A DNA stretch of 64,000 bases from an uncultured virus (IMG/VR IMGVR_UViG_650377941_000004) (taxonomy: Duplodnaviria > Heunggongvirae > Uroviricota > Caudoviricetes), in the IMG/VR virus record IMGVR_UViG_650377941_000004; one strand, given 5' to 3'. The notes beneath the pieces are model-generated. The model saw only the letters and a list, made by a program, of their open reading frames with translations, was not told the origin of the DNA and did not search any database. Both the position numbers and the translations under genes were made by a program. Shown one piece after another: positions 10,898 to 51,591 of the stretch (the stretch's first letter is position 1; every line of letters starts with the position of its first letter).

Positions 10898-11545
10898 ATG
10901 AGCAAGATTTTGAAAAGCACAACTTTGGGCAATGTGAAAAATGGCGGCATCTTCAAGGCGCTGGGCAAAGAGTTTGTGAAGCTGGATGCAGACGAACACG
11001 GTTGTCTGGTGCTGGCAAAGGACATTTGGACGAAAATGCCGTTCCGTGACGGCGACGACCCGGAGTGTCCCAACGATCTGCGCCGGAGCGATGTTATGAA
11101 GTATCTGGGTAACTGTCTGGCAGAGTTTACCGAGAAGGGTACGCCGCTGGATACTTTTATTCCGTTCAAGATCGACCTGCAGGACACAACCGGACAGACC
11201 GAATACGGAACCGTTGAATACAGAATCGGCCTGTTGACCCTGCGTCAGTATGGAAAGTATTGGCGGCTGATCCCGAAGGTAGATACGCCGTGGTGGTTGG
11301 CGACGCCTTACGGTACGCCGAATTGCTCTCCGTACACCAGCAGTAACAACTACGTCTGGGTCGTCTACACCGATGGCTCCGTCAACTACTACTGGTACTA
11401 CCGCTCCATTGGTGTTCGCCCCGCTTTGTACTTTCCCTCTACACTCTGGGTCTCTACCGAGGATGAAGGAGAAGCCGGGTTTTGCCTCGCCGATGTTCCA
11501 TTGGATGATCTGCTGGCTGAAATCAAGAGCCGGGCGGAGGAATAA
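10898..11545 (+). CDS. Remote DGR target protein (DUF6273/C-type lectin-like fold) carrying VR2
   Basis: WWLATP...VW.V.TDGS...GVRPAL motif; DNA matches TR except at adenines. Confidence 0.88.
   Translation: MSKILKSTTLGNVKNGGIFKALGKEFVKLDADEHGCLVLAKDIWTKMPFRDGDDPECPNDLRRSDVMKYLGNCLAEFTEKGTPLDTFIPFKIDLQDTTGQTEYGTVEYRIGLLTLRQYGKYWRLIPKVDTPWWLATPYGTPNCSPYTSSNNYVWVVYTDGSVNYYWYYRSIGVRPALYFPSTLWVSTEDEGEAGFCLADVPLDDLLAEIKSRAEE
11325..11425 (+). repeat. DGR variable region VR2
   Basis: 101 nt vs TR 48811-48911: 16 mismatches, 15 at TR adenines. Confidence 0.9.
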
Positions 11546-11547
11546 CC

Positions 11548-11934
11548 ATGGACGTTATCACAAAAGATGTCCGTGCTCTGGCAAAGAAGGAGCTGGCGGC
11601 AGCAAACCGCCGCTTTCGGATGTTCGCAAGTCCGCATGAAGGGTATGCGGTGATCCGGGAAGAACTGGACGAACTGATAGACGAGGTGCGGAAGCTCCAC
11701 TTTGGCTTGACAATCCGGCTGTGGCGAGATGTCAAGAGAAACGAACCCATGAAGCGGGAGCACCTGAATCTCATTTATGATGTGGCAATCCACGCAGCGG
11801 TGGAAGCTATTCAGCTGGCCGCAATGGTCAAGAAATACGAACGCAGCCAGCGGCACGACTGGCCGGGCGGCTGGGTGCCGGACTATGGAACGGGGCCTGA
11901 ACCTCTGAAAAAGAAAGGCGGGGAAACGGTATGA
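11548..11934 (+). CDS. Hypothetical protein, possibly MazG-like NTP pyrophosphohydrolase
   Basis: F.SPHEGYAVIREELDEL...EAIQLAAM pattern. Confidence 0.55.
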   Translation: MDVITKDVRALAKKELAAANRRFRMFASPHEGYAVIREELDELIDEVRKLHFGLTIRLWRDVKRNEPMKREHLNLIYDVAIHAAVEAIQLAAMVKKYERSQRHDWPGGWVPDYGTGPEPLKKKGGETV

Positions 11935-12323
11935 TTTTGGCAAAGGATGATATTGAAAAGGCTGTCAGCTGGTGGGCTGGAAAGCTGATGGATCACCAGC
12001 CGCATAGCAACGGAGACGATAGCTTTACCTCTGTTGCAGTGTGCTTCCTTGCGGATACGATGCGACAGAGCGTTACGCTGGATCAGCTGAACACATTCAA
12101 GGCGGCATTGGCAAAAAGCATTGAGGAATACGCGAAAAGCATTCAAGCTTTCGGCTTTTCCATCGGGAGTGATTACGGCCCGTGCAAAATGCTGGCCGAT
12201 GCTGCCGCCGAAGCTGGCATCGACAGAGCAAACTTTCCGTTCAAGACGACAATGTTTTTTACGGAAAAAGAGGGGGTTCTGGTACGGGATGGCTACGGTG
12301 CCCCGGCTGTCAGGATTTGTTGA
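11931..12323 (+). CDS. Hypothetical phage protein
   Basis: Coupled ORF. Confidence 0.7.
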   Translation: MILAKDDIEKAVSWWAGKLMDHQPHSNGDDSFTSVAVCFLADTMRQSVTLDQLNTFKAALAKSIEEYAKSIQAFGFSIGSDYGPCKMLADAAAEAGIDRANFPFKTTMFFTEKEGVLVRDGYGAPAVRIC

Positions 12324-12332
12324 GGTGACAGA

Positions 12333-12824
12333 ATGGTAACAAAAAATAAGACCCCGGCAGAGGTTGAGGCCGTGACCATCACCATGAGCCGGGAGACAGC
12401 ACAGGCCGTGAAGCAGGCGTGCGAAGAATACCTCCGGTTCCGCATGGGCCAGTTTGAGGACTTCACCAATGAGGTTTGCTGCTGGGATTATGTGGACAAG
12501 ATGGAAAAGCGGTGCCACACGACCGAAGAACGAAAGCAGTTTCATAAAGACCACGAAGCGGATTTTCTCAAGTGTATGCGGCTTCGTAACCAGATGCGGC
12601 AGGGCATGGACGCACTTTGGAAGCAGAACGTTCCGCCTGCATCTATCGACACGACCATGAAGGGAGCATACCGGGCAGAAACCGTCTGGCTGACGATCCG
12701 GTACGCGCTTGCGTGGCACGACTTCCCGGAGGGTGGACAGTGGGTCGATTTCTATGAACCGATGAACCGTTCGGATCAGCCCATGCCGAAAGTGGAACTG
12801 AAACTGAAAGGCGAAGAAAAATGA
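12333..12824 (+). CDS. Hypothetical phage protein
   Basis: GAGGTG RBS. Confidence 0.7.
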   Translation: MVTKNKTPAEVEAVTITMSRETAQAVKQACEEYLRFRMGQFEDFTNEVCCWDYVDKMEKRCHTTEERKQFHKDHEADFLKCMRLRNQMRQGMDALWKQNVPPASIDTTMKGAYRAETVWLTIRYALAWHDFPEGGQWVDFYEPMNRSDQPMPKVELKLKGEEK

Positions 12825-13066
12825 CGATCACAACATACCCGGACGGTCATTCCGTCCAGCAGGGAACACCGGAAGAACTGGCGCAGTTCATTTTCGCGGC
12901 GACGGAGGTTCAAACCTTGCAAAAATTCAAAAGTCTGGTCGAGGCAATCCCGGCGGAAATGGAGAAACAAAGGGATATTGTGGTGACGATACCGGATTTG
13001 CCAAAGAAGAAGCGAACGCCCAGAAAGAAAGCGGGAAAAGAAAATGAAAGAAAAACGTCTGGTTGA
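12821..13066 (+). CDS. Hypothetical protein
   Basis: Coupled ORF. Confidence 0.55.
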   Translation: MTITTYPDGHSVQQGTPEELAQFIFAATEVQTLQKFKSLVEAIPAEMEKQRDIVVTIPDLPKKKRTPRKKAGKENERKTSG

Positions 13067-13508
13067 TGCAAACCATTTCATGCAGGTACTCAAGAACATA
13101 GAGTATGCACTGAAAGGGGAGCTGACACACGGGAAAATCAAAACCAGTGTAGTGCAGATGATCGAGGGCAGTTTGAATGCCGAACCGACCATTGCCCCGG
13201 AGAGCCTGCAACCGCTGACATACAATGAGAACCGGGACTACATAGACTGCGACGAATTTATTTGCCACAAGTGCGGCATTCACGTTGAGGACTGGAAGCA
13301 AATCAAAATCGACCCGGACGACGGGGAGAAAGAACTTTGCGAGTACAAGTTTAAGCACTGCCCAGAGTGCGGCGCAAAAGTCACTTCACACAAAAGCTGT
13401 GAATTTTGCAGGTGGCATTTGCAGGACGGGACGTGTTTCAACAAACATCATTCTCAGCCCGTGACAGGCCGGGAAGCTTCCTGCTGGAACTGGGAGGAAC
13501 GTGAGTGA
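13044..13508 (+). CDS. Zn-ribbon-containing phage protein
   Basis: RLVDA N-terminus, CHKCG, CPECG, CEFC. Confidence 0.7.
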   Translation: MKEKRLVDANHFMQVLKNIEYALKGELTHGKIKTSVVQMIEGSLNAEPTIAPESLQPLTYNENRDYIDCDEFICHKCGIHVEDWKQIKIDPDDGEKELCEYKFKHCPECGAKVTSHKSCEFCRWHLQDGTCFNKHHSQPVTGREASCWNWEERE

Positions 13509-13642
13509 TGGAAAAAGAGTGTTTCACATGCGCATGGCATGATAACTTTTCATGGGTGTGCTTCAATGGAAATTCTGAGCATCGGGCGGATTTCACAGAC
13601 CCGGAAGATAGCTGCCCTGTGTGGGAAGGAAGGGAAGATAGT

Positions 13643-13796
13643 GATGAAAAAGAAGAAAAGTGAGTTCGGCGCTTACGCTATCGGCTGGCTGTACCTGCTG
13701 GCACCGGTGATTATTCTTGCCGTGGTGCTGGTGGTAAAATATTTTATTGCAGCATCCGACCTGCCGGATTGGTTCAAATTCGCCCTGCTGAAATAA
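13643..13796 (+). CDS. Small membrane protein
   Basis: Single hydrophobic helix. Confidence 0.5.
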
Positions 13797-13801
13797 GCAA
13801 G

Positions 13802-14050
13802 ACAAGCCCTCTACCTTATATATAAAGAGCGTCCGTCGTTAAATTGCCGCCCTGACGAGGCGGCAAGGGGCTTGTATATCGGAGCTAAACTAAGGGACAT
13901 TCTGAGAAATCAGAGAAAAACAGGAGCTTTCCCCCGGCGGGGAAAGGGAGTGCAGAGGGAAAACGAGGGCAGCGTTCTGATGGCTTGCCGGAAGCAGGAT
14001 CGTAGGGAACGCGGCCCGGTGTTGTTCCTCTGCATCGTTCCCTTCTCGTG
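13802..14050. other. Hairpin-rich non-coding region, candidate replication origin
   Basis: TTGCCGCC/GGCGGCAA (13844-13866), ACAAGCC/GGCTTGT and TGCAGAGG/CCTCTGCA inverted repeats directly upstream of Rep. Confidence 0.4.
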
Positions 14051-14109
14051 TTTGTGGTTCAAGATTCAGAAAATTCCATGACGTGTACGGAAAGGAGGAC
14101 GTGGAGAGT

Positions 14110-14943
14110 ATGACCGCGGGATTCAGAGTACGAGAGCAAAAATTTATCTGCGGCAAAGACTATGCCACGGCTGACACCATGCAGGTGGATTTTTTCGAGA
14201 TCACGGAACAGCAGCACAAGGCCAGCACCCGCAAGAAAAAAGAGCTGGCAAGCTCCATTGCGAAGGAAGCGTACAATTTGCGAAAAAGTGGACGGTATTT
14301 AGAGCTGTTGGTTCAGCGCAACTTCCACAAGAGCGATTATTCTGTTACATACACCTATGACGATGAACACCGGCCCGACCCGGCGGACACAAAGCGTGTG
14401 GATAAGGATTTTTCCGCCGCCATGAAAAAGCTATACCGGATGTGCGATAAAAAAGGCATTCGGCACCCGAAGTGGATCGTCGTGCATGAATACTCGACGT
14501 ATGTTGACGGGGTGTGGGTGGGAAAGCACCATCACCATGTCATTATGCAGCGCGTTTACGGTCTGACCCGTGAAATGGTAGAGGAAGCGTGGAGCGGGCG
14601 CGGCATGGCCCGTTGCGAACCTCTACACTTCGATCATGGCTACATCACGAGCCTTGCAAAGTACATCATGAAGAATGTGAGGTGCAAGCGCCATTGGCGG
14701 CAGAGCCGCGGGCTGAAACCGCCGAAAATGCCCCGCCCGAACGATGGGAAAATGAGCCGCACCAAGTTGAAAGATGTTTGCGAGAACCGTCTGGAAGATC
14801 GTGCATTCTGGGAGAAGATGTACCCCGGATACACCCTGCACTACTGCGAACCCATAATCACCGGCAACAACACCCGGCACCTGATCGTGCGCCTATATCG
14901 CAAAGAGACTGGGATGCAGCAGAACAGGAGGAACCGGCCTTGA
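14110..14943 (+). CDS. HUH-type rolling-circle replication initiator-like protein
   Basis: Motif 1 VTYTY, motif 2 HHHHVIM, motif 3 LAKYIMK, SRGL.PP. Confidence 0.7.
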   Translation: MTAGFRVREQKFICGKDYATADTMQVDFFEITEQQHKASTRKKKELASSIAKEAYNLRKSGRYLELLVQRNFHKSDYSVTYTYDDEHRPDPADTKRVDKDFSAAMKKLYRMCDKKGIRHPKWIVVHEYSTYVDGVWVGKHHHHVIMQRVYGLTREMVEEAWSGRGMARCEPLHFDHGYITSLAKYIMKNVRCKRHWRQSRGLKPPKMPRPNDGKMSRTKLKDVCENRLEDRAFWEKMYPGYTLHYCEPIITGNNTRHLIVRLYRKETGMQQNRRNRP

Positions 14944-14945
14944 GT

Positions 14946-15455
14946 ATGAGGATGGAACTTTCTGACCTGCCACCAAAGTATCGGGCACAGGCGGAAGCAC
15001 AGATTGCGGCCAGATGCAGAGCAAAAGCACCGACGCTGGAAGCCGTGGCTGCAGCCGCCAAGAAAACAGGACGGGAGTTTGACAGCAGGGGCGAGTACGA
15101 CTACTACATGGGAATGATTCTGCCAAAAGTCCAGCGCGGGGAGATCGTGAAGGTGGAATCGCACCGCAGGTTTACCATGCTGCCCGAAAAAGAATACGGC
15201 AATGTGAAACTACCGGCGATGCACTATACCCCAGATTTTGTGCTGACTTATGCAGATGGCACAGTTGAGGTTGTAGAGGTGAAAAGCAAATTCACCCGGC
15301 GGCAGCAGCGCGATTACATCCACCGCCGCCGTATGTTCATCGACCTTGTGGCGGAGCCGCGGGGCTGGCGCTTTGTGGAACACATTACCCCTGATACTGC
15401 AGCAGAAATCAAAGCATGGAAGAAGTGCGCCCAACAGACCGAAAGGAAAGGATGA
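14946..15455 (+). CDS. DUF1064-like PD-(D/E)XK nuclease
   Basis: FDSRGEY...YTPDFV...VVEVKS. Confidence 0.7.
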   Translation: MRMELSDLPPKYRAQAEAQIAARCRAKAPTLEAVAAAAKKTGREFDSRGEYDYYMGMILPKVQRGEIVKVESHRRFTMLPEKEYGNVKLPAMHYTPDFVLTYADGTVEVVEVKSKFTRRQQRDYIHRRRMFIDLVAEPRGWRFVEHITPDTAAEIKAWKKCAQQTERKG

Positions 15456-15461
15456 AACATC

Positions 15462-16079
15462 ATGAGCAGAGGAATCCCAAGGGCAGTGTCTATGCATATG
15501 GCACAGAATGCCTTTGCCCGGTGCGCCGAAAAGGTAAACACCAGAAAGAACCTGACGCTGAACCGGCAGGCCGTTGGCGAGGTGGTGAGCTACTGCACCA
15601 TGATCGCCGCCAATGACACGCTAGATTTCAACCGGGACAAGCAGGAGCGGCTTTGCACGGAAATGAACCACCGGGCAGAGGTATACACGGTTGAAATGAG
15701 CGCATATGGGCAGCCGAAAGCCCGCGAGAAGCTGAGAGAGCGCACAGCACCGATGCTGGATAAGCCGTTTGTCCTCCCGGCGGGACAATACCCGCGCAAA
15801 CAGCGTGAAAAAGACGCGCTGGCCGAACGGCGTGCCGCTGGTGATCTCGTGATCCGGTTCTTCATCGAAGCGCTGGATTCTATGGGCTATGATCGTGCCC
15901 AGATCAACAGCACCGTGGAAGAAGCCAGAAAAAACTATGAACAGTTCCTCGAATGGGCAAAAGACGGGGAGTATGTGGCGTATACCAAACTGGGCCGGTG
16001 TGTCGCCCAGATGACCGGCGGCAGTACGGAGGTTGCGCGTGTGCCCGGTGCAGGGCCTATCTTCTCGACAGAATTTTGA
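15462..16079 (+). CDS. Hypothetical phage protein
   Basis: Long ORF with RBS. Confidence 0.75.
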   Translation: MSRGIPRAVSMHMAQNAFARCAEKVNTRKNLTLNRQAVGEVVSYCTMIAANDTLDFNRDKQERLCTEMNHRAEVYTVEMSAYGQPKAREKLRERTAPMLDKPFVLPAGQYPRKQREKDALAERRAAGDLVIRFFIEALDSMGYDRAQINSTVEEARKNYEQFLEWAKDGEYVAYTKLGRCVAQMTGGSTEVARVPGAGPIFSTEF

Positions 16080-16103
16080 CGGTACGGAGCGTAGGAGGGC
16101 AAA

Positions 16104-16604
16104 ATGCAGGCAGAAGAAACGAAAATGATTTTGCGCTACTTTGGCGGGATTGAAGCACAGCTTGATGATGTCAACATTGAGCTGGCAGAACTGCGAGACC
16201 GCTACAATCCCATCAAGGGCATTGCTATGGACGGTATGCCGCACGGCAGCACGCCGGGAGACAGTACCGCGTCGCTGGCTGTGAAACTGGCCGATGATGT
16301 GGAGTGCCAGCGCCGGGAAAATGAACTTCGTGTTCGGAAGGATGTTCTCCGTGCAGATCAGACCACGATCCGGGGACAATTAGACCGGCTGAACAGTCGT
16401 TACAAAACGATCCTGTGCGGGCGGTATGTCTACAGTGATCCGTCGTTACAAAAAGGCTGGAAAACCATAGCCCGCGAACTGAGAAAAACAGAGATCACAG
16501 CCCAGCGGTGGGAAAAGTTCGCGCTGGTCGTTCTGGGTTCCATGCTGGATGAAGTCCCGATGGTCGAAGAACTGCTCTCACGCGCGTATGACGCGCGCGA
16601 TTAA
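16104..16604 (+). CDS. RinA/ArpU-like late transcription regulator
   Basis: DGMPHGS, IL..RY, W..IA.EL C-terminal HTH; last gene of the early operon. Confidence 0.7.
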   Translation: MQAEETKMILRYFGGIEAQLDDVNIELAELRDRYNPIKGIAMDGMPHGSTPGDSTASLAVKLADDVECQRRENELRVRKDVLRADQTTIRGQLDRLNSRYKTILCGRYVYSDPSLQKGWKTIARELRKTEITAQRWEKFALVVLGSMLDEVPMVEELLSRAYDARD

Positions 16605-16811
16605 AAGGGGCTGTAAAATGGCTTATGCCTGATTTTTGATAGAAAACCTGCAAAAACAGGCCCTTAGAATCGAACTTCAGCGATCTTAATTCGTGCCGGA
16701 AAGACACTATAGGGTAGAGAATGAAGCGAATTTATGCGCGTGCAGAATGAAGGGCTTCCGCGAAACCTCCGAACCGCTCAGAAAAACAAACTTGCGAATC
16801 GTCAAAAACAG

Positions 16812-16845
16812 AAATCCCCCGGCGGGTAATTCCGTCGAGGGATTT
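16812..16845. terminator. Bidirectional terminator between convergent operons
   Basis: AAATCCC.CGGCGG...CCGTCG.GGGATTT. Confidence 0.55.
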
Positions 16846-16852
16846 CGTGCGT

Positions 16853-17110
16853 TTATGGTTCGTTTTTCTTGATGATGATTTTCGGAACGGTGGGCGGTTC
16901 GCCGTGCTGCTTCATGTACTCGGCGATTTCGTTCGGCAGGCCAACAGGAAAGCCGTTTTCGTCCAGCGGCCCGTCATACCCGGAAAAATCCACAACATGA
17001 ACCGTGGGCGGTTCCTGCAGGGTGCCGCAATACTGGCCGTCCTCATAGTTTACATCCGTGACACGGTTCCAATAGCCAATGTCGCCGTGCTCGGTCTGGG
17101 CAGCTTCCAT
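16853..17110 (-). CDS. Acidic hypothetical protein (frame extends further 5')
   Basis: Open frame continues to ~17220; start uncertain. Confidence 0.5.
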   Translation of the reverse strand: MEAAQTEHGDIGYWNRVTDVNYEDGQYCGTLQEPPTVHVVDFSGYDGPLDENGFPVGLPNEIAEYMKQHGEPPTVPKIIIKKNEP

Positions 17111-17333
17111 TGCGGCGTGGGCCTGTTCCTCGGTCAGACCGTCGAACGTGGCGCGGGTGCCGTCGGCAAAACTGGCAACCAGACGCCAAGGCGCAAAAAA
17201 TTCGACTTCGTTCGTAAAAATGCCCCCTTTTTTGCAAATTCGTTGTTGGAATTGAACTTTTCGTGATGAAAAAGTCCAATTTCGTTAGTGAAAGTATATC
17301 ACAAGATGCCCCGGCATGGAACCGGGGCGTGGG

Positions 17334-17651
17334 TCATTCTTGTTCCTCTAAGCGCTTGCGAAAGGCTTTGTTCACAGTGTCGTACTGCTTGTTCAGAACG
17401 TCGTTGCCGTGGTCGTACTCGCTTGCCCACGAAAGCAGCTTGTCGGACAGACACCGGCAGGCAGCCGCCATGCAGACGCAATATTCGTTGTGGGTGTTGG
17501 GCAGGGGAAAGCTGCGCAGGATGTACATTTCATCGAAAACGGTATGCCGGACTTCAATGCGCCCGTTCCAGATCGTTATGTTGACGGTGGCCAAGTGGCG
17601 GCAGGAAGTGATCCTATGCAGGACTGAGAGAAAGCGTTCGTTGGTTGTCAT
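17334..17651 (-). CDS. Hypothetical protein
   Basis: AAAGGAG RBS. Confidence 0.7.
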   Translation of the reverse strand: MTTNERFLSVLHRITSCRHLATVNITIWNGRIEVRHTVFDEMYILRSFPLPNTHNEYCVCMAAACRCLSDKLLSWASEYDHGNDVLNKQYDTVNKAFRKRLEEQE

Positions 17652-17682
17652 GGTTCGTTGCTCCTTTTCGTGGTGGTGATGT

Positions 17683-18162
17683 TCAGCGAGCCGGTCGCCG
17701 CTGAAAGGTAAAGCCGGGGTTACGTTCGGTCATTCGTGCAACAACCTTGTCCGCCTGATCTTTCGTGAACCGGGGCGCAAAAACCTTGTTCATGCCGCGC
17801 CTACCGCCCCACGGGTCGCAGAGGGTAAAATGCTGGTCGCTGGGGCCTTTGCAGTAGATGAAGTAGTAAATCGTGCTGGCCGCGGGCATACCGGGGTATC
17901 TGCGGGGCGTGGAACGTGCAGCAACTTCGACAGAGAACACGGACAGCTTCGCGCACCCGAAAAGATGGGTGCAGCAGTTCGTTTTGCGGTCGAGGATTGC
18001 AGCCCCGTCCAGCTCGCGCCCGTCTGTTGCATACTCCTTGACCAGATAGGCGATTCGTGTATGGGCTTCGGCAATGGTGCGAAAACTCATATCTTCGTCG
18101 GTGAAATCGGCAGAAGCGCAGGTAATGACCTGATACCGATGGTTCGGATCGTATTCACGCAT
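17683..18162 (-). CDS. Hypothetical protein
   Basis: AAAGGAG RBS following a repeat copy. Confidence 0.7.
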   Translation of the reverse strand: MREYDPNHRYQVITCASADFTDEDMSFRTIAEAHTRIAYLVKEYATDGRELDGAAILDRKTNCCTHLFGCAKLSVFSVEVAARSTPRRYPGMPAASTIYYFIYCKGPSDQHFTLCDPWGGRRGMNKVFAPRFTKDQADKVVARMTERNPGFTFQRRPAR

Positions 18163-18246
18163 GGTTTGTATCTCCTTTTCGTTTTGTGGTAGCCTTGCGG
18201 CTGGGGCTGGGCTGCTTTGAACGGTGCAACCCGGCTAGAGTATCCG

Positions 18247-19869
18247 TTATTCGCCAAGCTGTAAAAGCGTGGCTTTCGTGGGGATCAGATGCCGTGCAAG
18301 AGTGTCCGTGTAACTCGCTTCGCCCTCGTAGCTGTCCACGATCTTCTGCTCTGCCTTGCTCATGTCGTGGTAGGATTTCTTGCCGTAGGACGGCGGCAAC
18401 CATCCTTTCTTCTGGCTGGCGAACAGGTTGAACGACTTCAAAACGTCGTCATTCGTGAATGTGATGTGGCAAGTGCCTTTTTTGTAGAAAGTGGCGGTGA
18501 AGTAGCGGAACTGCACGTTCTGGCTTTGTCCGCTCTCCTCGGCGGCTTTGAGCGTTGCCCGGAGTTCGTCGCCGTTGTACTTCTTGCCGTTCGTGTCGAG
18601 ATAGTGCAGGGTGCGCTCGATTCGTGACAGGCAGCTCTCAGCGTTCCAACCGGGTTCAAACCGCCCGGAGTAATCACCCCACGCCGAACACCGAAAGATC
18701 ACTTTCTTGCCGACTTTGTACGCTTCGTTCGTGCACCAGCCGTTGTAATAGTGAACGTTCTTCGAGTATTCGGAATTGTAGTGCAGATTTGTCCAGTCGT
18801 TGAAAAGGCCGATTATTTCATCTTCAATGCCGTTCACGATGTTAGCGGACATTTCTTCCCGGATCGTTAGAATGTTGTAGGGGCTGAAATCGTAGTTGGC
18901 AAGCTCGGAGATTCGGTTCTGGTACTCGCACTGCATCGCTTGCGTGAGGTTGTCCCGGATTTGCGGCAGGTCAAAGAGCTTCTTCCAGTACAAGCTGCGC
19001 AAGCTGTGAATCGCTTCGTTATAGCTCTTGTTGAAGTTCAGCACTTCGGTTTCCTTGTCGTCTGCGGTAGCGGCAGAAAACAGGCTCTTGATTCCGTTGT
19101 ACTCTTCGTAAATACGGCGGATGCCCTCGGCGGCGGCATTGTACCGTTCCACCGCGGCGGCGATGGGATCAGCAGACACCAGCGCGGCAAGCTGCGGATC
19201 GGCTTTCATGCGGTCGGTCATTTCGTTGTTGAGCTCCAACCGGATTTTGCTTACTGGCTCCTTGTCGGGAATGTCAACGGAGATCAACGCCACTTCAACG
19301 CGGGCGGCGCGGCGGGCGTTCTTGAAAGCGTCCGGGATGTATTTGATCTGGGCGTTGAGCTCGTTTAGCTTCTGCGCCAGCTCTTTCCGCTCGTTCGTGT
19401 AGGGATTGCGGATCGTTTCGGCGTTGAGCAGACAGCGGATTTTGCCGCCGTCTTTCATGATCTCTAAAGCCTTGAGCAAGTGAGCAGCACCGGCGGAAAA
19501 AGGCGGGTTCATGATGATCGCCGCGTATTTCTTCGCGGGGCGGAACGTGAGAAAATCGTCATGCACCACGCGGAAACCGTCTTTCTTCAGTTTGGCGCGG
19601 AAGTCGCTGGACAGTTCCACACAGTCAAGATCAAACTCTTTCGCCTTGCTCGTGCTGTAACGGTCAAGCTCTCCCGTTTTGGGATCGTGCCGAATATCTG
19701 CGACGGCGTGAATCTGGCGGGCCAGTGCGCCGTCACCGGCAGAGGGTTCAAGGATGGGCTGCGGCAGGTGCTTCCAGCCGTATTTTGTGCTTTGCAGGCT
19801 GTAAGCCATTTCCCACGCGAGATTGTCCGGGGTGGGGTAAAAGTCCCGGCTATCGTTCGGGGTCGTCAT
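18247..19869 (-). CDS. SAM-dependent DNA methyltransferase-like protein with DUF4942-like domain
   Basis: DFYPTP, ILEPSAGDG, IIMNPPF, C-terminal FYKKGTCHITF. Confidence 0.85.
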   Translation of the reverse strand: MTTPNDSRDFYPTPDNLAWEMAYSLQSTKYGWKHLPQPILEPSAGDGALARQIHAVADIRHDPKTGELDRYSTSKAKEFDLDCVELSSDFRAKLKKDGFRVVHDDFLTFRPAKKYAAIIMNPPFSAGAAHLLKALEIMKDGGKIRCLLNAETIRNPYTNERKELAQKLNELNAQIKYIPDAFKNARRAARVEVALISVDIPDKEPVSKIRLELNNEMTDRMKADPQLAALVSADPIAAAVERYNAAAEGIRRIYEEYNGIKSLFSAATADDKETEVLNFNKSYNEAIHSLRSLYWKKLFDLPQIRDNLTQAMQCEYQNRISELANYDFSPYNILTIREEMSANIVNGIEDEIIGLFNDWTNLHYNSEYSKNVHYYNGWCTNEAYKVGKKVIFRCSAWGDYSGRFEPGWNAESCLSRIERTLHYLDTNGKKYNGDELRATLKAAEESGQSQNVQFRYFTATFYKKGTCHITFTNDDVLKSFNLFASQKKGWLPPSYGKKSYHDMSKAEQKIVDSYEGEASYTDTLARHLIPTKATLLQLGE

Positions 19870-19959
19870 GGTTCGTTCTCCTTTTCGTGTTGGATTCACC
19901 CCGGCGGGGTGTGGGATCGGGTCGCTTTTCGTTCGGTGCGGCCCGTCAAGGCATCCGTT

Positions 19960-20484
19960 TCACTGCTGGGCTAAAATCGTGCTCAACCATGTGGAAGAGT
20001 CGGCGCAATCAACCATTTTCGCAAAGTAGCGGCCCGTTACAAGCTGGAACGCATATTGCGTGGTGTAAGTGCCGCTGTACATTTCCCGGCTGCAAAACTC
20101 TTCGACGTTGTTCCGGGTGTGCAAGCCGCGCGGCGGCAATACGTTCAGCGCGTCCTCATAGTCCTGTTTCGTGATCTCGACCATTTCCGGCGCGAGCAGC
20201 TTTTCCCGCTCAAAGTCCAGCCATTCGCCGTAGGTCATGACGGCATAAGAGCGGGCCTTTTCTTGCGCAAGGCGGCTTTCCCAATATCCCCGGTCGCTTT
20301 CGTGGTCGCCGGACTCGATGATCTGGGTGATCCGCTGGATGCTTTCGGCGGTGCTCTTCCGGGCGGCATTCAACACCTCTTCGGCGGTGCGGGGCGTGGG
20401 CCAGCCGGACACGGTGAAAGCGTAGATCTGGACGTTGGGAACATCCACAACAACAAGTTCGTTTTTTTCTTCGTTGGCGGTCAT
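19960..20484 (-). CDS. Hypothetical protein (DUF1419-like)
   Basis: EIT..DY.DALNVLPP...F...E.YSG.YT pattern; AAAGGAG RBS. Confidence 0.55.
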   Translation of the reverse strand: MTANEEKNELVVVDVPNVQIYAFTVSGWPTPRTAEEVLNAARKSTAESIQRITQIIESGDHESDRGYWESRLAQEKARSYAVMTYGEWLDFEREKLLAPEMVEITKQDYEDALNVLPPRGLHTRNNVEEFCSREMYSGTYTTQYAFQLVTGRYFAKMVDCADSSTWLSTILAQQ

Positions 20485-20580
20485 GGTATAATCTCCTTTT
20501 CGTTTTCGTGATTCACCCCGGCGGGGCGTTGGGATCGGGTCGCTTTGTCCGGTGCGGCCCGTCAAGGTATCCGGGGCGGG

Positions 20581-21555
20581 TCATGCGAGAAGATTTGCGG
20601 CGATGCTCTCAAAATCGAGCTGCTGGACGCTGGGGACCATTTCGGGGGCGTTGCGCTTGTGGCTGAGTTCGTCGAGAGCCATTACAAACGCGGCGGCTTC
20701 GCGGTCGCTGCTGATAAAGTCGCAACGATGATTTGTGAACTGCTGGACGATGGAAGAAAATTCGGGGTCGTTCTTGCTCTTCTGGTCAAACGTCTTGACG
20801 GCTTCCCGGTATTCCTTGCTGTCGTTGTCGTCGTGGGTGCGGTAAAAGTTGGAATACCACTTTTCAAAAACCGGCTCTAACTCTTCCATGTCAACGGCAA
20901 CGGCGGCGGGCTTTTTCGTGGTGCGGGACTTCTTCGGGGCGGGTTTCGTGGGCAGCGGCTCAACATGAACCAGTTCGGGAAGTTCGTGGTGCTCTTCAAC
21001 GACGATCGGCGCGGGGCGGGCAGCTTCGGCGGCTGCTTTTGCGGCGGCTGCTTTTGCGGCGGCTTCCTTTGCGGCCTTGCGTTCGGCGGCAAGCTGCTTG
21101 TTGTAAGCGATGATCTCCGCCGTGGACTTGAACCGGGCTTGCGGGGCGGGCTTGCTGCTTTCAACTTGTAAGCAGCTGAAAAGATGGGACTTCGTAGGGT
21201 AGTAATGCGGATCGGGTGCGGCTTCCTTGCCCTCTGCCGCGGCCTTTTCGCGCTGCTCTTTGCTGGGCTTCGTGGTGTACTTCCACAAGTAGCATTCAAG
21301 CAACGCTTTTTCGCCTTTCTTGACGCTCTTGCCCTCTTTCTTCCAATAGTCGAACGTGTGCAGCTCGTCCGCTGCAAACATGATCTCGATATCCGCGGCG
21401 GTGGCGGGCTTTTCGTTGCCGTCCTTGTCAACGATCTTGCAAGATGCAGCAACGGCGGCGATCTCTTCCGGGGTGTGGTGTACGGCGGCAATCTGGTGCA
21501 GCGTGGCCGGGTCAAGACGTTCAGCGGCGGCGCGGATAATCTGTTTATTCGTCAT
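20581..21555 (-). CDS. Protein with ArdC-like N-terminal ssDNA-binding domain
   Basis: TFDYWKKEGKSVKKGEKA...LW...LFS..QV motif; Ala/Lys linker. Confidence 0.65.
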   Translation of the reverse strand: MTNKQIIRAAAERLDPATLHQIAAVHHTPEEIAAVAASCKIVDKDGNEKPATAADIEIMFAADELHTFDYWKKEGKSVKKGEKALLECYLWKYTTKPSKEQREKAAAEGKEAAPDPHYYPTKSHLFSCLQVESSKPAPQARFKSTAEIIAYNKQLAAERKAAKEAAAKAAAAKAAAEAARPAPIVVEEHHELPELVHVEPLPTKPAPKKSRTTKKPAAVAVDMEELEPVFEKWYSNFYRTHDDNDSKEYREAVKTFDQKSKNDPEFSSIVQQFTNHRCDFISSDREAAAFVMALDELSHKRNAPEMVPSVQQLDFESIAANLLA

Positions 21556-21666
21556 GGTAAATACTTCCTTTCGTGTTTCGTTTTGTGGATCGTCCCGGCG
21601 GTGTGCCGGGGGAATGGGATCGGGTCGCTTTCGTTCGGTGCGGCCCGTCAAGGTATCCGGCGGGGT

Positions 21667-22008
21667 TCAATCTTCGGTTTCGTCGCAATCGTGGCAATAC
21701 AGCGCATCAATAACCTTGTCGTCGCTGAAATCGTCCGGGGTTCCGTTGGCATCGACCACAAGATCGATCCGGTCAAAAATCCGCAAGTCGGTTTCGTTGT
21801 CCACGATGAAAAACCAGTCGTCACCGTCCAGCGCGTCGCTGCACCAGACTTCAATCTGGTTTTCGTTGGTGGCGGTCATGCCTTTCACAATGGCCGGGGC
21901 GATATACCGCCCAAAAGGACCGACTTTGTAGGGACAGGCGGCAGCGGCGCGGGGTGCGCTGGACAGCAGCGCGGCGGCAAGTGCGGCGGCGGTCAAAATT
22001 CGTTTCAT
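21667..22008 (-). CDS. Small acidic protein with signal peptide
   Basis: MKRILTAAALAAALL N-terminus; AAGGAG RBS. Confidence 0.7.
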   Translation of the reverse strand: MKRILTAAALAAALLSSAPRAAAACPYKVGPFGRYIAPAIVKGMTATNENQIEVWCSDALDGDDWFFIVDNETDLRIFDRIDLVVDANGTPDDFSDDKVIDALYCHDCDETED

Positions 22009-22121
22009 GGTTCATATCTCCTTTTTGCTTTCGTGGTGTGTGTTCGGCTTTCTCCCGGACGCTTCCGGGGTGGTGGGATCGGGTCGCTTTTCGTGGTGCG
22101 GCCCGTCAAGGTATCCGGGGG

Positions 22122-22511
22122 TCATGCGTAAATTTCATTGAACACTTCGACGGCGTTCCATTGCACCGCCTTTTCACGCTGGGCAGCTTTCGCGGCGTTC
22201 TGGTCGCCGCCGTTGGCTTTCAATGCCATATAGAAAGCATCAACAAGGGCGGCTTTTTGCCGTTCGCGTTCCCGATATGCGGCGATCTGTCCGGCGTCAT
22301 ACACCTTGACCGCCCACGATTCATAGTGAATCGGGGTCAATGTTTCATGGTGCAAGCCCTTGCAGCGGTTCAGAACGGCAACGATCTTACCGGCATCCTC
22401 ATAAGTTGGGGCGGCGATGATGTAGCAAGGGACAGCGGCGCGGGCTTGCTTCTCGATGTTCCACCGGTGACGGGTGGCAATCTGGTTTATTTTCTTGTCG
22501 AATGCGGTCAT
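22122..22511 (-). CDS. Hypothetical protein
   Basis: AAGGAG RBS. Confidence 0.7.
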   Translation of the reverse strand: MTAFDKKINQIATRHRWNIEKQARAAVPCYIIAAPTYEDAGKIVAVLNRCKGLHHETLTPIHYESWAVKVYDAGQIAAYRERERQKAALVDAFYMALKANGGDQNAAKAAQREKAVQWNAVEVFNEIYA

Positions 22512-22606
22512 GTTCTCGATCTCCTTTTGATTTTTTGATTCACCCCGGCGGGGCGGTGGCATAGGGTTGCTTTTGCGGCAGCGGTGCAGCCCTTGAAAGT
22601 GTCCGC

Positions 22607-22635
22607 TTGACTTTACCGGCGAAAGCTGGTAGAAT
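22607..22635 (+). promoter_or_regulatory. Sigma-A-type promoter for an antisense sRNA
   Basis: TTGACT-17-TAGAAT with extended -10 TG. Confidence 0.75.
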
Positions 22636-22638
22636 CAT

Positions 22639-22709
22639 TGCAAGATCGGAACTCGAAAACCTATCTTGCAAGCCTGTCACCCTTTACCGGGTGGCGGGCT
22701 TTTTCTTTT
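22639..22709 (+). ncRNA. Putative antisense sRNA (type I antitoxin-like)
   Basis: TGCAAGAT/ATCTTGCA hairpin + terminator AGCCTGTCACCC/GGGTGGCGGGCT-TTTTCTTTT. Confidence 0.6.
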
Positions 22710-22782
22710 GCCATTCGGCAAGAAGAGCAGCCCAAACTGCCCGCTTGACGGCTTTCGGCAGCTTGAAAAACTCTTTATTCAC
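22684..22782 (-). CDS. 32-aa peptide MNKEFFKLPKAVKRAVWAALLAEWQKKKPATR
   Basis: GAGGTG RBS, GTG start; fills the slot after a repeat copy; below the ORF track size cutoff. Confidence 0.6.
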   Translation of the reverse strand: MNKEFFKLPKAVKRAVWAALLAEWQKKKPATR

Positions 22783-22877
22783 GCTTTTCACCTCTTTTCT
22801 GGTTTGATTCACCCCGGCGGGGTGTTGGGATCGGGTCGCTTTCAGCGGTGCGGCCCGTCAAGGTGTCCGGCGGCGAG

Positions 22878-23087
22878 TTAGAACCCCTGATTTTTCATCT
22901 GCTGGAGAATGTTCTGGTAAATCGCTTCCCACATTTCAGCATTCCGCACGGCGGATTCATGCGCCATCTTGCCGGACTTTTCATCACGGGCTTTTTCTTT
23001 CCAGTCGCAAACCACGAAACCGACACTTGCAAGAACGGTTCTCATGTCATCAGTGTCAAGGGTGATTGTCATTTTTTCAGCGTCCAT
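22878..23087 (-). CDS. Hypothetical protein (first gene of the leftward operon)
   Basis: GAGG RBS, promoter upstream. Confidence 0.65.
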   Translation of the reverse strand: MDAEKMTITLDTDDMRTVLASVGFVVCDWKEKARDEKSGKMAHESAVRNAEMWEAIYQNILQQMKNQGF

Positions 23088-23134
23088 AATGCAACCTCTT
23101 TTCTGCTTTGCGGTGTTTCGCTTGCCGTGGCTAT

Positions 23135-23212
23135 ATCATAGCATGAATCATGCAATGCGTCAAGCATGAATCATGCAATTTTACGAAATGCACAAAAAAG
23201 CATGATTCATTC
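23135..23212 (-). promoter_or_regulatory. Leftward operon promoter with GCATGAATCATGC operators
   Basis: TTGACG-17-TATGAT (23135-23163); palindromes at 23141-23153, 23164-23176 and degenerate 23200-23212. Confidence 0.75.
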
Positions 23213-23284
23213 CGTCAATTTTTGCATGGTGCATTCCGGGAAAATTTGATATAATGGGGACAGGCAGAAAGAGAGGTGACAAAA

Positions 23285-30742: not shown

Positions 30743-30745
30743 ACG

Positions 30746-35851: not shown

Positions 35852-35872
35852 CCCAGAAAGGAGGAATAAACA

Positions 35873-36400: not shown

Positions 36401-36476
36401 CGCCAAAGAAATGAAGCGACCGCCCCGAAAGACCGGGGCGGTCAATTTTTATATCTGAACAGAAAGGAAAACCACC

Positions 36477-41998: not shown

Positions 41999-42002
41999 CA
42001 CG

Positions 42003-42620: not shown

Positions 42621-42633
42621 GGGGGTGTTCTTT

Positions 42634-46416: not shown

Positions 46417-46435
46417 TTTTTAGGAGGACACTATT

Positions 46436-47305: not shown

Positions 47306-47325
47306 GACATGAGGAGGTAAGCTCT

Positions 47326-48162: not shown

Positions 48163-48164
48163 CG

Positions 48165-48740
48165 ATGGCTGAAACATTCAAGGTCGGCGCGAATGCGCGG
48201 GAGCTGCTGCGGTACACCCAGAGGGCAACCCGCATTGTCACCGACGACATCAGCCGGAGCGATGCCCGGAAGATCATCCAGAAAGTCGCAGCGCTCGAAG
48301 ATGTGCGCGACATCCAGAAGGTGTGTGGCACTGCCGTCCATGCACTCGACACACGGGACAGGGAGGGCTTTTCCAAAAGCACTTTCCGTCTGTACGGTGA
48401 GGGCATCCGGCTGACTGCCCGGCAAATCCTGCTGGATGCACACGCGGCAAACAACGTCAATTTCCAGACCGACTACGACAAGCGCGTTGAGAAGATCGGC
48501 GCAGTTGTGGACGGCTGCTCTCTGCTGCTGGAATACCTGACCATCTGCACGGAGGAAGGTATCATCAGTGCGAAGAAAGCCGGTATCTGGACAAAGAAGG
48601 TCACGGACGTAAAATACCCGGCGATGAAGTGGCTCACGTCGGAACGCGGACGTGCCGAAAAACTCCGGGCAGAAGCGGAACGGAAACGGCTGACCGAACA
48701 GGCTGCCGCCCTGAAAGCCGTCCTTTACCCGGAACCGTAA
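48165..48740 (+). CDS. avd: DGR accessory variability determinant (Avd-like)
   Basis: Helical basic protein immediately 5' of TR; FSKSTFRLYG..IR, W.K.V..VK. Confidence 0.75.
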   Translation: MAETFKVGANARELLRYTQRATRIVTDDISRSDARKIIQKVAALEDVRDIQKVCGTAVHALDTRDREGFSKSTFRLYGEGIRLTARQILLDAHAANNVNFQTDYDKRVEKIGAVVDGCSLLLEYLTICTEEGIISAKKAGIWTKKVTDVKYPAMKWLTSERGRAEKLRAEAERKRLTEQAAALKAVLYPEP

Positions 48741-48791
48741 ACGCACAGCGGGCAACCGCTTTGCATAAAGGGTGCGGTTTGTTTGTCTGAC

Positions 48792-48911
48792 GCTGCCATT
48801 TGGTGGCTGCGCTCTCCGAACACCAACAATAACAACAACGTCTGGAACGTCAACACCGATGGCTCCAACAACAACAACTGGTACAACAACTCCTATGGTG
48901 TTCGCCCCGCT
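48792..48911 (+). repeat. DGR template repeat (TR)
   Basis: Intergenic, 14 AAY codons in the VR frame; matches VR1 and VR2 except at adenines. Confidence 0.95.
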
Positions 48912-49081
48912 CTGATGGAACCGTGTGACGAGTAGGCATAAGCTGAAAGCAGTGCGCCCATCAAAGGAAACCGCATCCTGTCGCTTGCCGATGCAGGCAA
49001 GTGATAAATACATCCCGCTGAGGTGGGCCATCCCTGCCGGATGCAGCCCACTACCGTAACGCGAACCAGCGGAGGGCAATT

Positions 49082-50311
49082 TTGACATACGAAGAACTGT
49101 GCAGCTTCGAGGTGCTTTACAAAGCCTACCTTGAAGCCCGGAAGGGAAAGCGCAGTAAAAGCAAAACAATCGAGTACGAGGCGCAGGCGCTGGCCTGCAC
49201 GGAAAAGCTGTCCCGCAAGCTGGCTGTGCGTGATGTACGCCAGCCGGGCGGCGACATCCGGCAGCAGATATGCTATGTGCCAAGTAAGTTTGAGGTCTTT
49301 GCCGTCTATGAGCCGAAGCGCCGCATGGTACACGCCCCCGCATTTGTGGACAAGGTGGTGCTGCACGCTCTGGTCGATAACATCCTGTATGATGCCCTGA
49401 CAAGGAGCTTTATCCGGGACAGCCACGCCAGCCAGACCGGCAAAGGCACAGACGACGGCCTGATGCGCCTGAAAACCCACATGGTGGACTATTACCGCCG
49501 TGAGGGCCACGGCGCGGACGGCTGGGTGCTGAAAGGCGACGTGCGGCATTTCTTCGCCAGCATCGACCACCGGAAGCTAAAACGCAAGCTCAAAGCCGTG
49601 CTGGACAAGCGCGGCGTTGACCCGCGTGTCTATGAGCTGCTTTGCATCTACATCGACGTGATGGAGGACGGCTTGCCGCTGGGCTACCAGACGAGCCAGC
49701 TTTTCGCCCTCATGTTTTTGGACGAGTTCGACCACATCATCAAAGAAAAGTACCGCATCAAATACTATGGCCGATACATGGATGATTTCTACATCATCTG
49801 TTCGGACAAGAAGAAATTGCAGTGCATTCTCCGGGATGTTCGGGCGCTCATGGACAGTTACGACCTTGAACTGAACCAGAAAACCGCCATTTTCCCGCTG
49901 CGGAACGGTATTGATTTTCTGGGATTCCATAGCTACCTGACCGACACCGGCGCGGTCATCCAAAAGCTGCGCCGGGATAGCTCCAAGCGGATGAAGAACA
50001 AGATCAGATATTGGGAGACGGCATACCCCGCAGGCGAAGTGACCAAGCAGGAAATCCTGCGGAGCTTTGATGCGTGGGATGCCCATGCCGCCCATGGTGA
50101 TACTTACTCTTTACGCCGCAAGTACGCTGACCGGCTCGAAAAATTGCTTGACTGTAAAATCCCTATCCATCGAAAAATCAACTCGAACAAACTCGCGCGT
50201 GACAGACGGCGGGCGAGGCAATGCCGCTGCATCTACAAGAAGCAGCACAAAGCCCTGTCCCTCTCTGTATCGCAGAACACGCGGCCCGCGGAGATCATGC
50301 CGTGGGCCTGA
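49082..50311 (+). CDS. DGR reverse transcriptase
   Basis: AY..ARKGK, EPKRR, DKVVLHAL, LKGDVRHFF.SI, GLPLGYQTSQ, RYMDDF, IDFLGF. Confidence 0.97.
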   Translation: MTYEELCSFEVLYKAYLEARKGKRSKSKTIEYEAQALACTEKLSRKLAVRDVRQPGGDIRQQICYVPSKFEVFAVYEPKRRMVHAPAFVDKVVLHALVDNILYDALTRSFIRDSHASQTGKGTDDGLMRLKTHMVDYYRREGHGADGWVLKGDVRHFFASIDHRKLKRKLKAVLDKRGVDPRVYELLCIYIDVMEDGLPLGYQTSQLFALMFLDEFDHIIKEKYRIKYYGRYMDDFYIICSDKKKLQCILRDVRALMDSYDLELNQKTAIFPLRNGIDFLGFHSYLTDTGAVIQKLRRDSSKRMKNKIRYWETAYPAGEVTKQEILRSFDAWDAHAAHGDTYSLRRKYADRLEKLLDCKIPIHRKINSNKLARDRRRARQCRCIYKKQHKALSLSVSQNTRPAEIMPWA

Positions 50312-50331
50312 ACGAAAACAAGGAGGTAACA

Positions 50332-51591
50332 ATGGCAAACGTAAAACTGGGCACGAAAGCCGTTGGCAGCATTGTCAAAATCAAAGTCAACGGCGCGTCC
50401 AAAGATTTTATTGTTGTGCAGCAGGGCAACCCGAACACCAGCACCTATGATTCGAGTTGCAATGGAACGTGGCTGCTGATGAAGGACATCTACACCACGT
50501 CCACGTTCGGCAACAATAACTCCTACAAGGATTCCAGCATCCACACATACCTGAACGGAACGTTCTACAACCTCATCGACAGCAACATCCGGGCGGCTAT
50601 TAAGCAGGTGAAAATCCCGTACCAGAACGGCACTGGTTCCGGCGGCAGCCTTGCCACCGGCTCCAACGGCCTGAGCACAAAAGTGTTCCTGCTGTCTGGT
50701 TATGAGGTTGGTTGGACGACCAGCGACAACGGCTATTTCCCGAAGGACGGTGTGAGGCTGGCATACTTTGGCAACAGCTCTAGCGGTAACAGCAAGCGTA
50801 TTGCATACAATGGCAGCTACGCTGCCGTTTGGTGGCTGCGCTCTCCGTACACCAACGGTAGCAACAGCGTCTGGGGCGTCAACACCGATGGCTCCGGCTA
50901 CGGCTACTGGTGCGGCAACTCCTATGGTGTTCGCCCCGCTTTCATTCTTCCCTCTACACTCGTGGTCTCTGACGATGGCACGGTCAGTGTCAACACTGCA
51001 CCTACCGTCAGCACGGACGGCGCAGCTCTGGGGCGGAAGAACGCGGCCTTTGCGTGGAAGTACACCGTCAGGGATGCCGACGGCGACACCTTGACCGTCA
51101 CCGAAAAGCTGGACGGCAAGACCACCAAGACCCGCACCGGCGTTGCCAGCGGCACGGCCCTGACCTTTGAGCAGACGGCCAGCGCTGCCGGATTCCAGAA
51201 AATCCTGAACGGCAACCACACCATCACCGTTGAGGTGAGCGACGGCAAGGAAACCGTCAGCACGTCCGCGACCTTTACCAAGGCCGTCCACGCCGCAAGC
51301 GTGACGCTGGCTGAACCGTTGGCCGTTGAGGGCGACATTACCGTTGCCGTGCTTCAGGTGACCGGCTCCATCCCCGATGATGCGAAGTTCAAAGCCGAAG
51401 TGACCAACAACGCACTCGACAGCTCCCCGGTCTGGCAGGATGCCACGACCGAGGTAAAAAAAGGCGTGAACATCGTCTTTGAGAATAAGACCGCCACCAA
51501 CGGCGCGGCGTTTAACTTCCGCGTCAGCGTGGAGCGCGGCGAATCCGGCGAGGGCGGCTACATCGAAGCCGTCTCCGGCGCATTCCAGTAA
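50332..51591 (+). CDS. DGR target protein 1 (DUF6273/CLec-like domain + beta-rich C-terminal region), likely adhesin/receptor-binding protein
   Basis: KVFLLS..E, WWLRSP...GVRPA; contains VR1; GGAGG RBS. Confidence 0.9.
   Translation: MANVKLGTKAVGSIVKIKVNGASKDFIVVQQGNPNTSTYDSSCNGTWLLMKDIYTTSTFGNNNSYKDSSIHTYLNGTFYNLIDSNIRAAIKQVKIPYQNGTGSGGSLATGSNGLSTKVFLLSGYEVGWTTSDNGYFPKDGVRLAYFGNSSSGNSKRIAYNGSYAAVWWLRSPYTNGSNSVWGVNTDGSGYGYWCGNSYGVRPAFILPSTLVVSDDGTVSVNTAPTVSTDGAALGRKNAAFAWKYTVRDADGDTLTVTEKLDGKTTKTRTGVASGTALTFEQTASAAGFQKILNGNHTITVEVSDGKETVSTSATFTKAVHAASVTLAEPLAVEGDITVAVLQVTGSIPDDAKFKAEVTNNALDSSPVWQDATTEVKKGVNIVFENKTATNGAAFNFRVSVERGESGEGGYIEAVSGAFQ
50821..50940 (+). repeat. DGR variable region VR1
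   Basis: 120 nt vs TR: 17 mismatches, all at TR adenines. Confidence 0.95.

Follow-up and report, generated by a model that had tools for sequence, protein, structure and literature searches.

The 64,000-nucleotide (nt) stretch of uncultured-virus DNA analyzed here (IMG/VR record IMGVR_UViG_650377941_000004, hereafter the window) contains the integrated Faecalibacterium phage Lelie, whose single diversity-generating retroelement (DGR) almost certainly serves two genes from one template repeat (TR). One of them, target 1, lies beside the reverse transcriptase (RT) gene and contains variable region 1 (VR1), and the other, which encodes a protein of 215 amino acids (aa) hereafter called the small target, lies far away among early genes and contains VR2. 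When the repeats were aligned and the mismatches counted by script, TR differed from VR1 at 17 positions, 17 of 17 being adenines of TR, and TR 48811-48911 (33 A in 101 nt) differed from VR2 at 16 positions, of which 15 were adenines. The hypergeometric probability of such a restriction to adenine is 1.2e-11 for VR1 and 4.5e-8 for VR2. Compared directly, VR1 and VR2 are mismatched at 18 of 101 positions, and hence neither was copied from the other. The original prediction, made from the sequence of this stretch, had proposed one DGR with two independently mutagenized targets, and this stands: its repeat coordinates and mismatch counts were reproduced exactly, the mismatches at both VRs are restricted to TR adenines (with the one VR2 exception), and the avd-TR-RT-target cassette that it placed at 48165-51591 was borne out by PHROG and Pfam families. 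Its distance of 37 kb holds for the integrated prophage only; as the cos site is at 24306/24307, VR2 and TR are ~15.8 kb apart in the packaged or circular genome.

The window affords a natural experiment on the activity of the element. Window 33-53469 (+ strand) corresponds to the Lelie genome (PP479942.1), three collinear megablast segments spanning the 53,400-nt record with a 6-bp overlap at each prophage junction (window 33-38 and 53464-53469) and the packaged genome beginning at 24307. Megablast against a phage collection gave Lelie at 100% identity over 9000-13600 and 99.5% across the DGR cassette, the next match being FP_Toutatis at 95.7-97.1% identity. Comparison of the window with the Lelie record over these 53.4 kb shows 17 substitutions and one 1-base indel, in addition to an N-run at 23780-24219 in the window. 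All 17 substitutions fall in VR1, each at a TR-adenine site, and VR2 is identical. All substitutions between two sequencings of one prophage therefore fall within DGR-written sequence, at just one of the two addresses; VR1 was rewritten very recently. The window, Lelie, and FP_Toutatis share an identical TR region of 185 nt, whereas their VRs differ.

The use of VR2 was examined in the wider population. The small target was used to scan IMG/VR, which yielded 48 loci, and 43 full-length genes were aligned (the window, Toutatis, MT836117, and 40 loci). VR2 was distinct in 43 of 43. The original prediction had named a VR2 that is invariant among related prophages, or as variable off the adenines as on them, as the outcome that would speak against it; the opposite was found. 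Among the 20 genes of a close clade that shares the TR type, all 33 TR-adenine columns were variable, compared to 5 of the 68 remaining VR columns and 36 of the 547 non-VR columns, and in a clade of 80 to 85% (n = 15) the corresponding figures were 33/33, 2/68, and 99/547. Eight sequences with common non-A differences were counted separately from both clades, and these shared differences point to a putative second TR allele. Between the window and Toutatis, VR2 has 16 differences at TR adenines, 1 at a T, and 2 downstream. Moreover, the contig ends at VR2 or no more than 10 codons away from it at 5 of the 48 metagenomic loci (L048, L050, L052, L054, and L055), which is what within-sample heterogeneity does to an assembly. 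Altogether, distinct VR2 sequences in all 43 genes and variation almost confined to TR adenines argue that VR2 is a bona fide target that is often used in the population.

Three observations weigh against recent activity of VR2 in this very copy. VR2 has 0 differences between window and Lelie, against 17 for VR1; its single non-A mismatch (T48894>A, beside A48895>T) changes codon TAT to ATT; and PMC11792537 describes Lelie cultures as lacking read-level variation at either VR. The first two would be accommodated if VR2 of this prophage were a fossil, formerly a target but no longer serviced, leaving VR1 alone live, since the same prophage sequenced twice changed at VR1 only and since no TR copy could write the ATT codon. 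We consider a fossil VR2 decidedly unlikely, as its G+C-rich 3' end and shared flank are intact, the same ATT codon occurs in a phage (L012) whose VR2 is otherwise different, and the 43 distinct VR2 sequences include close kin with the same TR; a single rewriting event at VR1 suffices for 17 versus 0.

The two addresses share a common layout. VR1 and VR2 both end in the A-free block of TR, GGTGTTCGCCCCGCT, past which TR diverges immediately and VR1 and VR2 remain alike at 23 of the next 30 nt. In the phage BPP-1 DGR, initiation of mutagenic homing (IMH) follows the logic of a G+C-rich VR 3' end common to TR and then a VR-specific flank. Phages FP_Brigit and nd4 have the same 3' pattern with sequences of their own. 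By analogy, the pattern fits the IMH logic of BPP-1 and makes the flank a candidate recognition element, although this flank also encodes a conserved PSTLxVS strand, and protein constraint may account for part of the likeness. No conserved hairpin stood out when the DNA 3' of each VR was folded.

The BPP-1 DGR comprises Avd, TR, and RT and directs adenine-specific mutagenesis to the tip of a C-type-lectin fold. The window contains Avd beside TR, a DGR-type RT, mismatches restricted to TR adenines, and diversification of the VRs, all of them marks of a DGR. The RT translation contains LGYQTSQ and YMDD, which we take to be a DGR RT signature. NCBIfam returned only sub-threshold matches to other RT classes for this protein, its library being without a DGR-specific model, and avd, recognized through its PHROG, had no Pfam or NCBIfam match. 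A TR rich in AAY codons, as here (Table 1), is the usual DGR design, and the spacer between TR and RT is presumably part of the DGR RNA. BPP-1 has one target beside TR, the trimeric fiber-tip protein Mtd of 381 aa with extra N-terminal domains; the window DGR is unlike it in having two targets, one of them remote and single-domain.

Closer counterparts of both targets were defined by Baykov et al. (2023) in the gut phages nd4 and nd12, as tentaclins and small "target 2" proteins (PMC10743442). Target 1 has the tentaclin layout described there, its N-terminal DUF6273/C-lectin domain carrying VR1. The "tail-module protein" of the original prediction is apt for the position of its gene, between tail genes and lysis genes, and this label is positional only; the protein itself is of tentaclin type. 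Its C-terminal half matches a PHROG labeled "Hoc-like head decoration," no Pfam match was found in aa 210-419, and an Ig-like domain is reported for the Toutatis orthologue (preprint 10.1101/2024.10.15.618418). Tentaclins as a class have at least one Ig-like domain, the last of which bears a C-terminal anchor motif. NCBIfam gave no match for target 1 or for the small target.

We propose a model in which TR of the single Lelie prophage DGR (avd, TR, RT) would be transcribed into RNA and then copied into cDNA with errors only at adenines. The cDNA would be written over DNA with a matching 3' end, i.e., the G+C-rich block identical to TR followed by the VR-specific flank. Two genes would bear this address, the one for the tentaclin-type protein beside RT (VR1) and the one for the 215-aa lectin-like protein in the early/replication region (VR2). 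In both targets, the rewritten codons would form an exposed hairpin of a DUF6273/C-type-lectin-like fold.

The small target scores 20.5 bits against Pfam DUF6273, below the cut-off of 23.5, and 64 of 83 aligned relatives do match DUF6273. A profile search of 1.84 billion representatives retrieved 2,286 relatives with an E-value cut-off of 1e-3, of which 195 passed E<=1e-30. Structure prediction, suggested together with the original prediction, succeeded for this protein: with the 83-relative alignment, AlphaFold2 (AF2) gave a model with a predicted local distance difference test score (pLDDT) of 92.3 and a predicted template modeling score of 0.82, replacing a first model from a 29-row alignment of three lineages that was unusable (pLDDT 45.7). 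The model has one globular lectin-like domain, with VR2 on a beta hairpin, and a C-terminal helix (aa 202-214) joined to it by an acidic linker. With a single DUF6273/C-lectin domain, a VR near the C terminus, and flanking helices, the protein is of the nd4_tgt2 type, whose members have ~200 to 300 aa; it is 34% identical to nd4_tgt2 (E 1e-22) and 29% to nd12_tgt2, which likewise are single lectin-like domains with short flanking helices. The top Protein Data Bank match in Foldseek was 9qa6 (E 1.8e-6), an IgA peptidase of Thomasclavelia ramosa with the only solved DUF6273 domain, its N-terminal domain being annotated as such in PMC12402451. Lower matches (E > 0.1) were C-type-lectin-like: Lcl, LOX-1, NKR-P1, EgtB, and the Bacteroides pilin 4eps.

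The original prediction also placed the VR2 protein among early genes and saw no signal peptide, and both points held: the neighbors are early genes by Pfam and PHROG, and a crude hydrophobicity test detected a signal-like N terminus neither in this protein nor in any of 150 family representatives. Lelie and Toutatis both carry the gene in their early rightward region; in the window, it belongs to a gene string at 10035-13508, next after an SPFH gene. When the early regions of Lelie, Brigit, nd4, and nd12 were compared all against all by BLASTP, the small target alone proved common to all four; the Lelie neighbor at 10238-10879, for instance, has relatives in nd12 and in another genome, G275 (phrog_24518), and none in Brigit or nd4. 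In FP_Brigit, gp06 (L058:3948-4559) is the third gene past the lysogeny switch, ahead of exonuclease, RecT, and replisome-organizer genes, and is itself a DGR target, with 7/7 mismatches at TR adenines, ~41 kb from TR in the record. In the original description of FP_Brigit, the target named is the Hoc-like one (Cornuault et al. 2018, PMC5883640). In nd4, the small target overlaps the start of an exonuclease/Pol III-like gene, with single-stranded DNA-binding protein (SSB) and DnaC genes downstream, and its VR has 9 of 10 mismatches at TR adenines, ~11.6 kb from TR. The nd12 neighbors carry no annotation.

This comparison was extended to 301 genomes of the same order, of which 21 had small-target matches and 10 loci were taken for context. 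PHROGs were assigned on 270 of the 399 candidate open reading frames (ORFs) of >=80 aa at these loci (150 plus 120 longer, mostly nonoverlapping ones), the other 129 being left out. Replication, recombination, or regulatory genes were found within ~3 kb at 8 of the 10 loci; they encode exonuclease, replication initiators, helicases, DNA polymerase, SSB, DnaC/DnaD loaders, SbcCD, Holliday-junction resolvase, repressors, and integrases, and at one of these loci (G140) the small target is among the first genes past the lysogeny switch. Two loci were not classed as early, one (G039) with a Zot-like ATPase gene next door and one (G152) with a transglycosylase-like gene and otherwise no recognizable neighbor. 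The full layout recurs in G275 (small target at L133:7826-8515), with 12/12 mismatches at A between TR and VR1 and 11/11 in the remote small VR, and in G144 (L134:8949-9860), with 12/12 and 8/8, the small target being ~21 to 32 kb away. The G275 small target has a pyrophosphatase gene immediately 5' of it. A small prophage-like element (G115, L136:9544-10702) carries a tandem pair of small DUF6273 targets adjoining the 5' side of avd, TR, and RT, with 11/11 and 14/16 mismatches at A, in a cassette between repressor and replication genes; no tentaclin was seen within its 20-kb stretch. The tally over 14 lineages is 11 in an early/replication setting, 3 unassigned, and 0 in a head or tail module. 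Judged by these neighborhoods, small targets would be early-region genes across lineages, a cross-lineage rule that is an addition of this analysis.

Three points lead us to favor the small protein as a nonstructural early protein: where its gene lies, the absence of an export signal, and the fusion of the nd12 small target to DUF3310 (E 2.5e-16), the domain found in SaV, which according to PMC8306868 is an early lactococcal phage protein and toxic. As the original prediction had suggested, it may be a nonvirion, cytoplasmic diversified binder made with the early genes, e.g., for counter-defense or host takeover, a reading that we hold tentatively and rate somewhat short of probable. Several points weigh against it. 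Gene position is circumstantial as evidence of timing, and the fold is also used by known phage receptor-binding proteins. In G140 and G152, the small target adjoins a transglycosylase-like gene whose secondary PHROG matches are virion-associated lysins. Fusions within the family are mixed, single representatives being joined to HTH, Rep, LPD15, or SufE and others to LysM, CW_7, or CHAP, and the C-terminal extension of the G144 small target gave a PHROG match to a nucleoside triphosphate pyrophosphohydrolase (MazG-like, E 1e-17) that was unconfirmed by Pfam. Finally, the Lelie authors call the role of the target pair "not entirely clear" (PMC11792537), and receptor binding is proposed for small targets in PMC10743442 and in preprint 10.1101/2024.10.15.618418.

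In this published view, the small target would belong to the virion and serve receptor binding or adhesion, a pared-down counterpart of Mtd docked on tail or capsid via its terminal helix, and the DGR would extend the range of hosts or ligands at two sites of the virion together; we consider this view plausible but doubtful. It accords with a C-type-lectin-like fold that exposes the VR on a hairpin (also PMC10743442 and preprint 10.1101/2024.10.15.618418), with a conserved C-terminal helix that in the model could dock, coming as it does after an acidic linker, and with the core status of the gene in Toutatisvirus (98.8% of 173 genomes; preprint 10.1101/2024.10.15.618418); virion proteins, moreover, need no signal peptide. 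A head or tail module setting in 0 of 14 lineages argues the other way, as do the FP_Brigit and G140 genes among the first past the lysogeny switch. With one globular domain in 215 aa, the small target also lacks the N-terminal beta-prism and beta-sandwich that join Mtd to the fiber (PMC10743442), and Mtd (1yu0) is absent among the 50 Foldseek matches listed.

The transglycosylase-like genes of G140 and G152, the membrane-anchored 3D-domain and SPFH proteins encoded 1 to 3 kb upstream of the small target in Lelie, and the single family members fused to LysM, CW_7, or CHAP would also suit a protein made early that acts at or beyond the envelope without a Sec signal, either released at lysis or working with membrane-anchored wall enzymes. 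Such a protein would bind cell-wall or gut ligands, e.g., blocking receptors on debris or neighboring cells. We regard an envelope role as unlikely, given an export signal in 0 of 150 representatives by the crude test above and DNA-metabolism genes as most neighbors.

Returning to the nonstructural early protein, the reading may be extended from Lelie to the family: the small DUF6273 proteins of phrog_9958 could be widespread early, intracellular programmable binders (counter-defense, takeover, phage competition) and the first phage class of nonvirion DGR targets, which we regard as possible, if rather speculative. They would have been missed by large DGR surveys because the target is remote from RT; in the largest survey, remote targets were undetectable by its own account (PMC8144416). 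Our literature search found no phage example of a demonstrated nonvirion DGR target. Cellular DGRs with intracellular targets, namely, cyanobacterial regulators (PMC7517822) and putative antigen sensors of multicellular bacteria (PMC10907252), set a precedent for diversified cytoplasmic proteins, but these, as described there, are cellular, multidomain signaling proteins.

At least a dozen gut phage lineages, unrelated to one another, devote a hypermutation system to a small protein whose gene accompanies those for replication and regulation. If the protein is intracellular, DGRs would be more than host-range devices and would offer a way to keep pace with variable intracellular opponents; if it is on the virion, it would be a minimal receptor-binding module with an oddly placed gene. 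Since Lelie is inducible in culture (PMC11792537), the role of the small protein is directly testable.

The dual-target DGR as such is already published for Lelie and Toutatisvirus, and the DGR part is ordinary. Gulyaeva et al. (2024) report two variable regions in Lelie, with large and small targets that carry DUF6273 and have the VR at its C terminus, and the same target pair in a divergent prophage, CP11 (PMC11792537); the Lelie DGR is the same element as that of the window, apart from VR1, one indel, and the N-run. As stated originally, the finding therefore adds little, repeating published work on the same phage. In Toutatisvirus, Egorov and Atkinson describe two DUF6273 targets per TR with C-lectin-like predicted folds, a DGR in 68% of 173 genomes, and the second VR gene 17,480 nt from TR (preprint 10.1101/2024.10.15.618418). 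Cornuault et al. (2018, PMC5883640) had earlier reported the Toutatis DGR, with no function assigned to its target. Phages nd4 and nd12 are of other genera, and PMC10743442 puts both of their targets in the "cassette," yet the nd4 small target lies at the distance from TR given above. Our additions are the natural experiment of 17 changes at VR1 versus 0 at VR2, the population test of VR2, the second FP_Brigit target, and the early-region rule. The Lelie paper, by its own text (PMC11792537), had too few cognate genomes for an alignment, whereas we could count the A-site differences of VR1 and align 43 VR2 sequences; the Toutatisvirus preprint (10.1101/2024.10.15.618418) proposes receptor binding, and the treatment of the early-region position and its comparison across genera are ours.

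Table 1. Features of the Lelie DGR, its two targets, and their surroundings in the window
Feature	Position	Strand	Details
Terminator-like hairpin after SPFH gene	9946..9969	+	9 pairs, 8 of them G-C, then a T-run; consensus scan only
Small target	10898..11545	+	215 aa; phrog_9958 over full length, E 1.4e-86
VR2	11325..11425	+	aa 144-176 of small target
VR2 3' flank	11426..11455	+	Counterpart of 50941-50970
avd, DGR accessory protein	48165..48740	+	phrog_3206 "Avd protein of DGR," E 5.5e-36
TR	48792..48911	+	34 A in 120 nt; 14/40 codons AAY
TR-to-RT spacer	48912..49081	+	Holds block CAGTGCGCCCATCA..AAGG, also downstream of the FP_Brigit and nd4 TRs (3-phage sequence comparison)
DGR RT	49082..50311	+	RVT_1, E 6.4e-18; phrog_1423, E 1.7e-121
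Target 1	50332..51591	+	419 aa, tentaclin type; DUF6273 at aa 44-208, E 4.4e-36; phrog_10993, E 2.6e-144
VR1	50821..50940	+	aa 164-203 of target 1
VR1 3' flank	50941..50970	+	Common to VR2 (23/30 nt), not TR; candidate IMH-type recognition element

Around the small target, a promoter scan of 2400-17000 gave 8 sigma-70-like sites against 9.6 expected, none of them before the small-target operon. PADLOC had no matches for the small target and 7 neighbors, nor had NCBIfam for the neighbors at 10238-10879, 11548-11934, and 11931-12323. A search for RNA data sets covering window 6000-15900 listed none. Four RNA runs of the same species label had 0 reads on window 33-20000, the presence of the prophage in these runs not being established.

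By Pfam and PHROGs, the window holds the complete set of modules of a temperate myovirus-type phage. A serine integrase and a helix-turn-helix repressor at the left end are followed by a rightward early region with HD hydrolase, C5 methylase, 3D-domain protein, SPFH membrane protein, small target, regulator, replication initiator, and DUF1064 nuclease, and by a leftward block at 16.8 to 24 kb between the replication genes and cos. After cos come terminase, portal, capsid, sheath, tube, tape measure, baseplate, and fiber genes, then avd-TR-RT-target 1, and then lysis genes. The membrane-anchored 3D-domain protein (wall-binding or transglycosylase-like) is encoded at 7223-7759 and the membrane-anchored SPFH/prohibitin protein at 9028-9939, both 5' of the small target.

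The attachment core lies within the reading frame of the serine integrase (1-1659, - strand), which in the excised Lelie record crosses the junction (record 29057-30784), so that integration replaces the C-terminal ~35 codons of the integrase with host-flank sequence. The indel, a single G at ~6180, is the sole non-VR sequence difference from Lelie apart from the N-run; it alters the start of the C5 cytosine methylase ORF (5860-7275), giving 471 aa in the window versus Lelie orf49 at record 35169-36401, and could reflect either an error in sequencing or a phase-variable run. The N-run is immediately 5' of cos and the small terminase gene, where the Lelie sequence is very G+C-rich and repeat-like. 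The leftward block (16800-24300, - strand) encodes a 550-aa protein with an adenine-methylase-like N terminus and DUF4942 (18247-19899) and a protein of 356 aa that weakly matches the anti-restriction domain ArdC-N (20581-21651, E 2e-4). The right-hand host flank of the prophage (53629-64000) carries an M78 peptidase/DUF4411 pair, an FRG-domain protein, and the methylase and specificity subunit of a type I restriction-modification system (60004-62746).

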